NCBI GenBank assembly: GCA_964016885.1
Contig: OZ024741.1
Coordinates: 140,306,001-140,370,000, forward strand
Length of the DNA stretch: 64,000 nucleotides
Direction: 5' to 3'
From: Eledone cirrhosa
Lineage: Eukaryota
Position numbers and translations under genes: made by a program. Under the pieces are notes generated by a model. The model was not told the origin of the DNA. It did not search any database and saw nothing but the letters and a program-made list of their open reading frames with translations. This document shows, piece after piece, positions 8,635 through 34,877 of the stretch (its first letter is position 1; each line of letters begins with the position of its first letter).

Positions 8635-8822
8635 AGGTTTTAATATAGATGAGATTCTACAGGACTAGAACTGTTTCATTCATTAGAAATCATCATGATG
8701 ATTTCTAATGAATGAAACAGTTCTAGTCCTGTAGAATCTCATCTATATTAAAACTTTTATACTCTGCTATGCATTGAGTACCTTACTTACTGTGGTTACC
8801 TCCGATTCAACCCGGAATAACG
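8635..8822. mobile_element. Fold-back pLTR fragment: perfect 118-bp palindrome with its axis in the HHR core
   Basis: 8637-8754 is a perfect inverted repeat with axis catca|tgatg; right arm reads TGATGA...GAAA-cag..ctg-TA; (TA)n on both sides. Confidence 0.85.
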
Positions 8823-8933
8823 TATATATATATATATATATATATATATATATATATATACGTATATATGTATATTTATATATATATATATATATATATA
8901 TATATATATATATATATATATATATATATATAT

Positions 8934-10766
8934 AACGAAGGAAATGTGGTAAGGAACCAGGTGGACCATAACGCACCAAAGTACTCAATACTTGAGGTAG
9001 TAGAGTGGGTAATAGGAACCAGTAAGACCCCGACAGCTGAGCTCAAGCCGTTTCGACGGCTAATTTTGGACTAAATGAAAATTTATCCTGGTATTTAAAT
9101 AGCCGATCTTCTCAAGGGGTAATTCCATATATGGTCAAAGTGATTATCAAAAATCAGTAGTAATTCTGTGGTTGCAAATTAGTAGGGGAGATGGTGGCTA
9201 AACCTGCCAGTAGGAGAAAGAGGGGAGGGGGTGGAGTAGACCCAATCAAGCGTTGGTAGTGCCAGCCACAGCTGGGCATGAGGTCAAAGAAGATACAGGG
9301 GAGGGGGAGGGGGAGGAAGTCGGAACGGTAGGTAGAACAATGGGGGGTAGACATATATAGGAAAGAAAAAATACTGAGAGTGAAGAAAAGCAAATAAGTG
9401 TAAAGAAAAAAGTAAAGTAAAGTAAATTCTATGACCTAGGTCTCTAGCTATTGTTAGGCTAGAATAAATAAATAAAGAAAGAAAGACGGACCAACTCCTA
9501 AACAAGAAAGATGAACTGGTTACTGCATGTAAACATAGATTGCGTAGGACTTACCTCGCCCTCAAACCCCATAATGACCCGTGGGGGTAGACTAGGGCTA
9601 CAACACCCCACTTGCCGATTTTGCAATGGGTAACCCCTGCTTGCCAAGGGAGACGTAAGATCTTCTTTGTATTCTTTTATCTATTCCTTTATTTCCTTCC
9701 CCCCTCTCTCCTTAGTCCTTCTACCCCAGCTCTTCTCCTTTGTCGGCGTCTTTTCTCGCCCACCCGAGGCTGCCCTTTGGCCCCTTGTAGCCTTAGTACC
9801 CCCACCCCTCCCCTAGTATATGATAGATTTGGCGGACTCCGCCCTTTATAGCAGTTGGTTTAGACCCCGGATACTTGTCCCCTTTTTCCGACCGCTCCCA
9901 CTATTCTGTGTGCCCTCTATATTTCTTAGTGGCACTTATGCCTTATTTTTTCGTTTCAGTATTTCTTTCTTCGCTTTTATTTTGGGCGGGGTGGATTCTG
10001 AATTTATTTTTCCGTATTCTACCTTTACTTCGTACGAACTTTCATGTAGATTGTTTTAGATCTTTTAGAGTTAGCATTAGTATATATTTTTCTCGGGACT
10101 CAGAATTATTATCTCGTACAAGTTCACTTTGCTGCACTGGGTGGTTGCTGGCATTGTGCCCGGGATGGAAACCTTTATTGTTTATTTCGTGGTAGTCTCT
10201 TTAGTATTTTGGCCCCTTTTGTTGACCCGTCACCGTATCATTTACGTACTTATACCTCTTAAAAGGGTCCTTGCCAATTCCGTCCCACCTAGTTCTTTTA
10301 CTTATTTCGTTATTTCTTTATTTCTTTCTTTACTTCTTTCTTTCTTTATTTATTTATTTATTCTAGCCTAACAATAGCTAGAGACCTAGGTCGTAGAATT
10401 TAATTTACTTTACTTTTTTCTTTACACTTATTTGCTTTTCTTCACTCTCAGTATTTTTTCTTTCCTATATATTTCTACCCCCCATTGTTCTACCTACCGT
10501 TCCGACTTCCTCCCCCTCCCCCTCCCCTGTATCTTCTTTGACCTCATGCCCTCCCCTCTTTCTCCTACTGGCAGGTTTAGCCACCATCTCCCCTACTAAT
10601 TTGCAACCACAGAATTACTACTGATTTTTGACAATCACTTTGACCATATATGGAATTACCCCTTGAGAAGATCGGCTATTTAAATACCAGGATAAATTTT
10701 CATTTAGTCCAGAATTAGCCGTCGAAACGGCTTGAGCTCAGCTGTCGGGGTCTTACTGGTTCCTAT
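8934..10766 (+). mobile_element. Severely 5'-truncated Naiad-type PLE with inverted pLTR
   Basis: 9012-9487 is the inverse of 10335-10766; 9489-9590 encodes DQLLNKKDELVTACKHRLRRTYLALKP (endonuclease C-terminus); ~1.2-kb 3'UTR. Confidence 0.85.
10658..10751 (+). ncRNA. Hammerhead-like motif (atypical core TTGAGAAGA)
   Basis: acccc/ggggt stem I, cggcta/tagccg stem II, GAAA-cggct..agctg-TC; mirror copy at ~9026-9120. Confidence 0.55.
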
Positions 10767-11996
10767 ATATATATATATATGGTGAAATGAACAGGGAATG
10801 ATTTTGATTTATAACTTTGCACATTCTATTCCGTCATTTTATTATGTCTTTAATTTCTCATTCTATTTTCTCATGAAGGATTATTATCCTAAACTATAAC
10901 TAATACTATATTTACGTGAAACTAATACATATGTTCTTCGTATTTCCTCATCTGTTTTGTTAGTTTACTTTTCATATACATATATATTTATGCATTGCGT
11001 AAAAAAATAAAGAGTTTTGATATAATTTAAAGATATTTGAGCCTTACGCTGAAGCTCAAACCTTTGCGATGTTTCTGTATACACACACACACGCACACAC
11101 GCACACACACACACACACACACACACACACACACACACACACACACACACACACACACACACACACACACACACACACATATATATATATATGTATGTGC
11201 GTGTGTGTATGTGTGTGTGTGTGTGCATGTGCGTGTGTGTTTATGTGTGCGTGTGCGTCTGTGTGCATATATACATATATTCGGTATATAAGGATGCAAT
11301 TCCACTCAAGCACTCGACGTCATATCACCTCTTTAAATTAAGGGTGACGGAGTATATTTATAAAAATACGAATATGAGCATAGACATGTATGTAAACCCA
11401 TATTTGTATGTGTATTTAATGCATGTGTGTATGTGCAATTCGATATAAGCTATAGATTATGTTTAATTCTAAATAAACATTGGTATCGTGCTGGTGACTG
11501 CTATCTGTGCTATATACATTTGAAAGCAATGAATAAATAATGTAATGATGTACTATACTATTACTTACCTCCTCTAATTTAGTAGGTGAATTCCGAGGGA
11601 AAATTGAATACTTAGAGTGTGTTTAGGCATAAACAACTGTATTTGGAGAATGAGAAAGCCAATGAAACGGTCCCTTCTTTTAACCTCTATCTCCTGATTG
11701 AATCGCATCCTGGGCATTTAAACCTAGCTGTGCCCTGTCCTCTCCAGATTTGAACCTAGCTATTATACTCAGCGTATAGATATCGGGAGAGTGACAGAGC
11801 AGTGGAGAGAAAGGGTGCGGGACAGGGGATTGAGTGAGGGAGAAGAGAAAAGAAACGGTTCAATTACTAGACTGGCACCTTATCGAAATGGGCTTGGCGT
11901 AATTTGAAATCAGAACATAAATAAACATCACATGAAACATTTTCCAATTCTCTATTGTTTCAGCCAACCTAACGCCTTAATTCCCCATCTAATAAT

Positions 11997-12402
11997 CGTT
12001 TCTTATATAGGCACAATGCCAGCAATTAGGAGGGAGGGGAAAGGCGATTAAATCGACCCCTACTGCGTGACTGGTACTTTATTTTATCGACCCCGTAAGA
12101 ATGAAAGGCTAAGTTAACCTCGGCAGGATTTGAACTCAGACCATATGCTGCAAAACATTACGTCCGACCTTCTACCGATACTGCCAATCAACCGCCCTTA
12201 TTGCCCATTTAATAAGTGTTTCTACTTTTGGCACAAGGCCAGCAATTACCCAGTACATTACTGGTACTTTATTTTATAGACTTCGTAAGGATCAAAGGCA
12301 ATGTCAACCTCGGTGGGATTTGAACTCAGAATAGCAAGGGCCGTAACTCTATGCGTCAAAGCATGGTGTCAGACCCTCTACCGATACTTCAATCTACCAC
12401 AT
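11997..12402 (-). mobile_element. Two tandem Nin/Deu-domain SINEs inserted at the same target (older degenerate copy at ~11865-11978)
   Basis: Central gttaactt/gcctttcatccttacggggtcgataaaataaagtaccag motif; target-like ttccccatttaataat is repeated at ~11982, ~12201 and ~12403. Confidence 0.85.
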
Positions 12403-12742
12403 TTCCCCATTTAATAATGACTAGTCAACACATCGTGTCCATTGGTTCTACAATGTTGAAATTAGTTTGCAGAGAAGAGTGAGAGTTCCAGTTAATACGA
12501 TGCTATTCGTGTTTTCACTAAGCATATAATATATTTTAATACAATGAAAAGAAATACAGACGAGAAACATAACAGTTCAGATTATATATCAAAGTAAATA
12601 ACAGCATCACTAATTAGTCTTTCGGCAGATTCGTGTGAAATAAGAACGATAAAAAACAATCACGCCCGATAATTAGTCTTTTCACAGATGTATATAGTAA
12701 ATATACATCGTATAAGTATATATATAAGTAGTATATAGGAGC

Positions 12743-33940: not shown

Positions 33941-34009
33941 CTAATTTATATATATATATATATATATATATATATCTTTTTTTTTTTCTTTTGGAACGAT
34001 CGACTTTCG

Positions 34010-34210
34010 TCAAATCGAACGGAGGAAACATTGTTTCCATCGGTCTTTCCAGTTGCTAATACTATCTATCGGTTGTAACTCCAGGTAGAAGGAGCAACGT
34101 GAAATAAAGTGTCTTGCTGAAGGACATAACGCATCGCCCGGTCCGAGAATCGAACTCACAACCTCACGATTGCGAATCCAATTCTCTAACCACTGAGCCA
34201 CACGCCTTCA
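34010..34210 (-). mobile_element. CORE-type tRNA-derived SINE (octopus OR-like)
   Basis: A-box tggctcagtgg, B-box gagttcgattc, CORE-like tgtccttcagcaagacacttta. Confidence 0.8.
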
Positions 34211-34215
34211 CATAA

Positions 34216-34438
34216 TATATATATATATATATATATATATATATATATATATATATATATATATATATATATATATATATATATATATATATATATATAT
34301 ATATATATATATATATATATATATATATATATATATATATATATATATATATATATATATATATATATATATATATATATATATATATATATATATATAT
34401 ATATATATATATATATATATATATATATATATATATAT
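34216..34438. repeat. Long pure (TA)n tract
   Basis: Directly visible. Confidence 0.98.
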
Positions 34439-34877
34439 GCAAAAGTTATATTTAAAATTGTTGGGATACAAGAAGTAAATATTTTATAACTGATATAAAG
34501 CACTCGACAAGTTTTTGGAGTAGATATACGATATTAATAAATGGAAACTATATTTATAAAACCATATTTATTTCATTATACATATTTCAGGGATACCAAA
34601 TTAAAATATGGTATGCCTTCATCAGACAAAATACAATATATAAACAGTTTTATAAATAATGTTGGCGTACCCTATTAGATGCAACCATTATTTCTGGAAG
34701 CTTCCAAACATAATGGTTGCATCTAATAGGGTACGTCAAAATTATTTATAAAACTGTTTATATATTGTATTTTGTCTGATGAAGGCATACCATATTTTAA
34801 TTTGGTATCCCTGAAATATGTATAATGAAATAAATATGGTTTTATAAATATAGTTTCCATTTATTAATATCGTATAT
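34439..34877. mobile_element. Fold-back HHR element (~350-bp palindrome)
   Basis: 34524-34877 with axis ggaag|cttcc; HHR 34768-34832 and its mirror; (TA)n flanks. Confidence 0.9.

Follow-up and report, generated by a model that had tools for sequence, protein, structure and literature searches.

How does a genome come to hold short palindromes whose arms both point outward into (TA)n repeats, and what has a ribozyme to do with their centre? The question is raised by a 64,000-nucleotide stretch of the Eledone cirrhosa genome (contig OZ024741.1, positions 140,306,001 to 140,370,000 of the forward strand; hereafter the window), in which an initial annotation described seven palindromes of about 120–430 bp. 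It proposed that a reverse transcriptase (RT) had made them, either from both ends of a (TA)n cut or by folding back at a hammerhead ribozyme (HHR). The seven inverted repeats, P1–P7, are pieces of the 5′ untranslated region (5′-UTR) of six Penelope-like families, here called A–F. The palindromes are back-to-back pairs of such fragments: within a pair, one arm stops at a short site (S) and its partner at a long site (L). Their likely origin is a cut in (TA)n, each of whose two ends primed a complementary DNA (cDNA) on the same RNA; the two cDNAs likely ran off its predicted capped 5′ end and were then joined.

All seven inverted repeats are present near the places where the initial annotation had set them, although details of P4 and P5 required correction. 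The arms are 53–180 nt long and 88–100% identical, which is far beyond chance. All are sense-outward and abut (TA)n at both ends, and in each of them one arm stops at S and the other at L, 66–106 nt further 3′, as the earlier description of one arm running further than the other had implied. The arms are as follows, with positions given relative to the predicted RNA start (+1).

8637..8695, minus strand: P1 left arm, family C, S end; 5′ end within the HHR core, about +8 from the predicted start
8696..8822, plus strand: P1 right arm, family C, L end, then (TA)n
15590..15654, minus strand: P2 left arm, family B (no HHR core), S end; extends to about −4 of the predicted start
15657..15801, plus strand: P2 right arm, family B, L end
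17696..17882, minus strand: P3 left arm, family D, L end; begins at +2
17884..17994, plus strand: P3 right arm, family D, S end; begins at +2; HHR-like core CCGACGA at 17905
21735..21886, minus strand: P4 left arm, family E, L end; begins at about +108; then a 16-nt filler
21903..22062, plus strand: P4 right arm, family E, S end; begins exactly at the predicted +1; HHR core at 21972
22161..22420, minus strand: P5 left arm, A-related subfamily, L end; HHR core at 22346
22455..22589, plus strand: P5 right arm, S end; HHR core at 22492
29924..29995, minus strand: P6 left arm, family F, S end; parent core variant CAGAAGA
29992..30135, plus strand: P6 right arm, family F, L end; begins at +18 in the stem II loop
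34439..34700, minus strand: P7 left arm, family A, L end; HHR core at 34625
34701..34872, plus strand: P7 right arm, family A, S end; begins at about +12; HHR core at 34776

In P4 (21735–22062) the complementary arm measures only about 55–70 nt around a spacer of about 120 nt, and in P5 a junction of about 70 nt is rearranged. Only in P5 and P7 do both arms carry an intact CTGANGA core; in P4 one arm has it. Beyond the original seven, the window holds an eighth palindrome, again tail-outward and with arms of unequal length, one short and the other long (42207–42455). An older one of about 89% identity (48045–48278) carries a CTGATGA-like word without GAAA and is related to 6591–7175 and 47519–47986.

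The parent families were traced with exact anchors placed just 5′ of S. Their genome-wide matches number 4201 for family A (P5 and P7), 7003 for B (P2), 12363 for C (P1), 1971 for D (P3), 8353 for E (P4) and 35322 for F (P6), the most abundant. Long copies encode an RT followed by a C-terminal GIY-YIG endonuclease (EN), with YRDD and then YIGST or YVGST in the open reading frames (ORFs) of loci L068, L097 and L117, and RT or EN pieces are present at loci of families B, C, D, E and F. The Pfam GIY-YIG model scores below its cut-off for L161 and the window ORF at 4102 and gives no match for L068 or L158. The same order of RT and C-terminal GIY-YIG, together with a CxCX5C linker, a DKT motif and CxxC/CxH around the EN end, characterizes the Hydra clade in the accessible text of Craig et al. 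2021 (PMC8557442). These motifs, the last around a conserved E and N, were read in the endonucleases of A, B, E and F and in the RTs of A and C; for the Hydra-clade RWK motif, RWR was read in A and C. Insertion into (TA)n, a Hydra-clade trait, is seen in the families here, and so is the arrangement of EN-bearing (EN+) Penelope-like elements, in which the pseudo-long terminal repeat (pLTR) stands in partial tandem with an inverted, 5′-truncated copy and a tail at one end. By motifs set against the definition in the available part of PMC8557442, the parent elements fit the Hydra clade of EN+ Penelope-like elements; the Neptune clade was considered and rejected, since the linker is CxCX5C and not CX2-5CxxC. 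The earlier attribution to Penelope-like elements and to reverse transcription is supported.

The HHR differs among the families: CTGANGA cores with stems occur in A, C and E, CCGACGA or CTGACGA in D and CAGAAGA in F, and B has none. An Rfam scan of the window gave no hammerhead match, only sub-threshold miRNA-like hairpins and one tRNA, and is not informative on this point. The family-B loci L161 and L162, which lack an HHR core, carry a long hairpin spanning the predicted start.

The short palindromes do not stand apart from longer structures. The S/L pairs counted below were taken from loci sampled in the opening part of one contig (C1). Spacing in family A is continuous from 85 bp to 7.8 kb, the sizes reach ORF-bearing pairs of 4–8 kb, and L097 is a full RT-EN copy carrying an inverted pLTR; the short palindromes form the lower end of one size distribution. 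The window itself contains two long examples:

8935..10763, strand unassigned: B-related, longer form of this structure, with the L arm on the left, the S arm on the right and an EN C-terminal fragment between
2448..6536, strand unassigned: long inverted pair with 1.5-kb arms, flanking a Hydra-type GIY-YIG ORF fragment (4102–4932, plus strand)

Polarity was counted by hand among the first 100 anchor matches per family, taking opposite-strand neighbours at no more than 1 kb. The outward orientation noted for the seven palindromes holds for 79 of 81 such pairs across six families, both exceptions being in F. Tandem copies of families A and C show the pLTR, an initiator (Inr)-like site, the HHR, S, L and an ATG in that order, and S and L are therefore internal sites of the 5′-UTR. 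In family A, TATAT follows both.

After removal of duplicates and of anchors less than 250 nt from a locus edge, 300 anchors were scored (A 83, B 54, C 74, D 30, E 29, F 30), with S at 135, L at 153 and another end at 12. As S and L are about equally common, roughly half of the pairs would be S+L if the ends were independent. Automated scoring of 108 distinct short pairs gave 94 S+L, one S+S, no L+L and 13 with one end at neither site, so that S+L accounts for 94 of the 95 pairs with both ends classifiable. Long family-A pairs, read by eye (n = 24), comprise 22 S+L, one S+S (L377) and one complex case (L067); the same reading met six copies without a partner in the DNA examined and one unclassifiable copy. 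L374, the only L+L pair found, lies 2.3 kb from the palindrome L375 and shares a less common variant with it, perhaps by local duplication or assembly error.

The position of the axis bears on the role of the ribozyme. The 5′ ends of the arms gather in a 16-nt window in family A (17/49), B (44/51), C (37/50), E (8/19) and F (11/21), with p ≤ 0.007 in a free-window scan. The first family-A sample, which required the entire 175-nt query and hence was biased, was excluded from these counts, and family-B ends at −7 are alignment overrun. In all six families an Inr-like pyrimidine-pyrimidine-A site marks the 5′ edge of the pile, and a TATA box at −30 is canonical in C, is represented by TATA-like words in A and B, and is weak in E; the usual Inr and TATA consensus sequences served as reference. 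An internal promoter in the Penelope pLTR is described in the accessible part of PMC2377424. Relative to the Inr-like site, the HHR core begins at +89 in A, +6 in C, +22 in D, +69 in E and +5 in F (variant core). Where start and HHR lie apart, the ends within 8 nt of the core number 3/23 in A, 3/8 in D and 4/11 in E, against 2.7, 1.9 and 1.6 expected, and at the HHR cleavage site no notable pile-up of 5′ ends was seen by eye in A and C (2–4 ends each). Family B has the sharpest axis, yet no HHR core. The palindrome axis follows the predicted transcription start and not the HHR, and the ribozyme link is mostly one of proximity to that start.

The initial annotation placed the axis in or just 5′ of the HHR. 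This stands insofar as the axis cuts the core in P1 and P6, and is not supported for P2: the axis was assigned to stem II near 15656, and a scan of about 900 nt of the parent loci L161 and L162 finds no sense CTGANGA, nor any core-GAAA pair close to the axis. The companion proposal, that the ribozyme causes the fold-back, is not supported, given the lack of enrichment at the core in A, D and E and the sharp axis of B. At L364, L365 and L368, family-F 5′ ends form another, minor cluster some 50 nt upstream of the main site.

The bases at the joint suggest what happened at the template's 5′ end. G directly precedes +1 in 17 of 26 ends lying exactly at +1 and in 15 of 108 other ends (Fisher p = 4e-7). 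Among the first 100 genome-wide matches each, the non-natural base before +1 is G in 76/100 for C and 61/100 for F (natural −1 base T), and about 15 of 20 such Gs in F are clearly untemplated by eye. Both arms begin at +1 in 235 family-C palindromes, with a spacer of 0–4 nt. The first 50 of these comprise 24 with a C-A/T-G spacer, five with a 4-nt C..G spacer, 15 with a single C or G and six others, none with zero spacer; the extra G is on both arms in 29, and 47 are S+L, one is L+L and two are truncated. Family F shows the same joint types. An untemplated G is an accepted mark of cap copying in L1 (PMC4859970), and where both arms carry the extra G, with a 1-nt spacer between, the joint would read as two cap-copying run-off cDNAs; with G on both arms around one base, two finished cDNAs are needed.

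These joints also bear on two explanations in which the palindrome does not arise by such priming. The first is origin after insertion, by deletion between the arms of a long inverted pair or by repair of a hairpin break. Long inverted pairs are common and microhomology is found at many joints, but a deletion would not halt at the Inr-like site, place G on both arms or leave a 1-nt A/T spacer, and this explanation is very improbable. The second assumes units moving as entire hairpins, either by a DDE transposase or by re-copying of a master hairpin, in the manner of miniature inverted-repeat transposable elements (MITEs). It would account for recurring joints, such as the exact P1 joint at 41 loci and the 235 of the +1/+1 type. 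Against it, the C-A/T-G class comprises 12 arm haplotypes in 24 loci with both spacer orientations, and six sampled P1-type loci differ in variants; 103 of 108 junction 20-mers are distinct, and the S and L ends are asymmetric. Symmetric, fixed terminal inverted repeats with a uniform interior are not what is found, while any target-site duplication of fixed length would be masked by the (TA)n flanks, and such mobile hairpins have only a very slim chance of being the answer. Of the earlier phrase "MITE-like hairpins made by an RT", the RT remains, and the likeness to MITEs is a resemblance in view of the asymmetric ends, the distinct joints and the sizes continuous to 4–8 kb.

A further rival is snap-back: a single cDNA would fold back and prime on itself, whether at the ribozyme or at some other place, and be copied into a hairpin, with later trimming producing the S end. 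Self-priming on an antisense template is the published reading of such junctions in the available text of PMC3846280. HHR stems serve as inverted microhomology at 5 of 32 family-C joints (by eye), and the four of 11 family-E ends near the core correspond to p = 0.06. The lengths of the arms provide a test, because the template arm of a snap-back cannot have the shorter 3′ end: it must be L, further both 5′ and 3′. Yet S reaches further 5′ in 34 of 49 informative pairs. By more than 12 nt, it is the longer arm at the 5′ side in 17 of 76 short pairs (L in 11, within 12 nt in 48) and in 17 long pairs (L in four, one tie). A C-A/T-G joint would further require a 1-nt loop or three exact untemplated bases, the extra G at the Inr-like site suggests a capped sense template, and the axis is sharpest in the coreless family B. 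As the general explanation, snap-back is unlikely; it probably also happens, in a minority of copies.

The earlier idea that both ends of a (TA)n cut prime reverse transcription is the one supported, by the S+L count, the G on both arms and the S arm that is often further 5′. The RNA would start at the Inr-like site, be capped and remain uncut by the HHR. The GIY-YIG endonuclease would cut both (TA)n strands, and each 3′ end would prime at one site, S or L. Copying from S or L in the 5′-UTR would leave only 60–280 nt of template, and strong-stop-like cDNAs would dominate, while priming in the 3′ pLTR would yield the kilobase-scale pairs. The RT may copy the cap as an extra C, often add one A and jump onto the end of the partner cDNA; alternatively, the two cDNAs may anneal by inverted microhomology, sometimes from HHR stems. 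A more demanding version holds that two-site twin priming is obligate: a dimeric RT-endonuclease would use S on one strand and L on the other along one capped sense RNA and end with a cDNA-end jump, the palindromes being strong-stop fossils that map promoters, with the ribozyme uncut and antisense self-priming overturned. We give this version an even chance.

Several observations weigh against this origin. The 48 short pairs with arms no more than 12 nt apart cannot separate twin priming from snap-back by length. A diagnostic variant is common to both arms in 42 of 42 scorable pairs (23 A/A, 19 T/T; eight unscorable), which fits one RNA or one source locus, and equally fits snap-back or arm-to-arm conversion. 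Fold-backs of 15–35 nt at the 5′ end without a second 3′ end exist at L039, L060, L089, L343 and L358. Part of the Gs are templated by the partner arm or the flank, and among 30 family-C loci only about 7–9 of 19 are clearly untemplated by eye. A fixed order of the spacer A, with the L arm first, was tried and rejected (13:10). Family D has no pile-up (5/11 ends in the 16-nt window, scan p = 0.16), and no TATA stands at −30 in families D and F. The start site was picked after the pile-up had been seen, which makes fixed-window p-values post hoc, and both start and cap are inferred. Finally, the start sites of the anole enzyme are, in the available sections of PMC11167929, the same for both strands and not homologous to the target.

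Raw reads address the remaining explanation, that the palindromes are artefacts of assembly or of chimeric reads. The seven loci of the window are without individual bridging by independent reads, and the L+L pair L374 stands beside a near-identical pair. Against an artefact, each arm of a pair stops at its own fixed site, and substitutions distinguish the two arms. Raw Illumina reads from restriction site-associated DNA sequencing (RAD-seq) of three samples of another study (X13–X15) were mapped on a family-C tandem copy: depth rises 4–5-fold at the predicted start, (TA)n loose ends lie at both S and L, and opposite-strand joints occur near +4 in all three runs (40, 37 and 40 reads, from 1–3 starts each). 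A 391-nt short-read contig (contig 4 of X1, possibly the assembled sample itself) is a tail-outward pair. An artefact is scarcely credible. Family-A reads are dominated by a subfamily carrying the RAD site and are uninformative on the axis of that family. At L148 (1446–1524), reads carry head-to-tail joints 76–78 nt back, leading from S to a point some 14 nt upstream of the predicted start; these are short, retrozyme-like tandem HHR units of family C.

The comparison with known systems relies, except for L1, on the accessible parts of the papers. Hydra-clade elements (PMC8557442) are described with a (TA)n bias, an HHR in the pLTR and inverted 5′-truncated pLTRs with the tail on one end, as here. 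They differ in that the tails reported there are 30–40 bp and here 66–106 nt, in canonical HHRs, set against the coreless family B and the CAGAAGA of family F, and in that ORF-less pairs of 120–430 bp dominate some families here. Arkhipova et al. 2013 (PMC3846280) show similar junctions for Penelope elements of Adineta vaga, with head-to-head inverted pLTRs, an optional tail on one of them and palindromes at the junction, and with a TATA and the Inr-like word TCACT in the pLTR. They propose self-priming on an antisense template; the present data speak rather for a capped sense RNA on which two target-primed cDNAs are made. Frangieh et al. 2024 (PMC11167929) describe an anole Penelope protein, Poseidon PAc, which in vitro cuts and extends both strands without a need for HHR cleavage; its two internal RT starts bounding the tail, its extension of both strands and its predicted dimer resemble the scheme proposed above. 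No strand-specific site use or target homology is reported in the sections available, whereas the pairs here use one site each and family-A sites precede TATAT.

As in L1 twin priming (PMC4859970), two primings lead to an inverted segment, and an untemplated G marks the capped 5′ end. In L1 the arms derive from non-overlapping parts of the RNA, whereas both arms here cover one stretch of the 5′-UTR. Non-LTR retrozymes (bioRxiv 10.64898/2026.07.22.740005) are likewise short, non-coding and derived from a Penelope pLTR, often with an HHR; they form head-to-tail tandem arrays, and all seven palindromes here are single inverted pairs. No statement of the S+L rule or of a cap G for Penelope-like elements was found in the literature searched, outside which fall older subscription papers and the supplements of PMC11167929 on genomic ends.

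Other elements share the window. A Penelope-like ORF of another type (39024–40193, plus strand) has a GIY-YIG match above the Pfam cut-off and inverted repeats upstream (38010–38936). Two stretches on the plus strand (54103–58982 and 61423–64000) carry ORF1 and an open 1204-aa endonuclease-RT ORF, the second copy being 96% identical; we take this element to be L1/Tx1-like. Broken ORFs of non-LTR retrotransposons of two further types lie on the minus strand (42977–46165 and 51708–53266), and the tRNA-like Rfam match (47242–47312, plus strand; 40.7 bits) is possibly the head of a short interspersed nuclear element.

The palindromes are a minimal variant of the known, published back-to-back Penelope structure; as a by-product of an element class already described, they do not amount to a new system. 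What is added here is evidence on mechanism, in favour of twin priming at two sites along a capped sense RNA whose start is inferred. The origin of the inverted ends and the one-sided tail of Penelope-like elements is named as an open question in the accessible text of PMC8557442, and exact predictions for an existing in vitro system follow from the S+L rule, from the cap-like G that both arms carry and from the 1-nt joint. These three features also offer a readout of transcription starts from DNA alone. By a rough extrapolation from sampled matches, minimal palindromes number on the order of 10^4 in the genome. If transcribed by read-through, they would give perfect hairpin RNAs.

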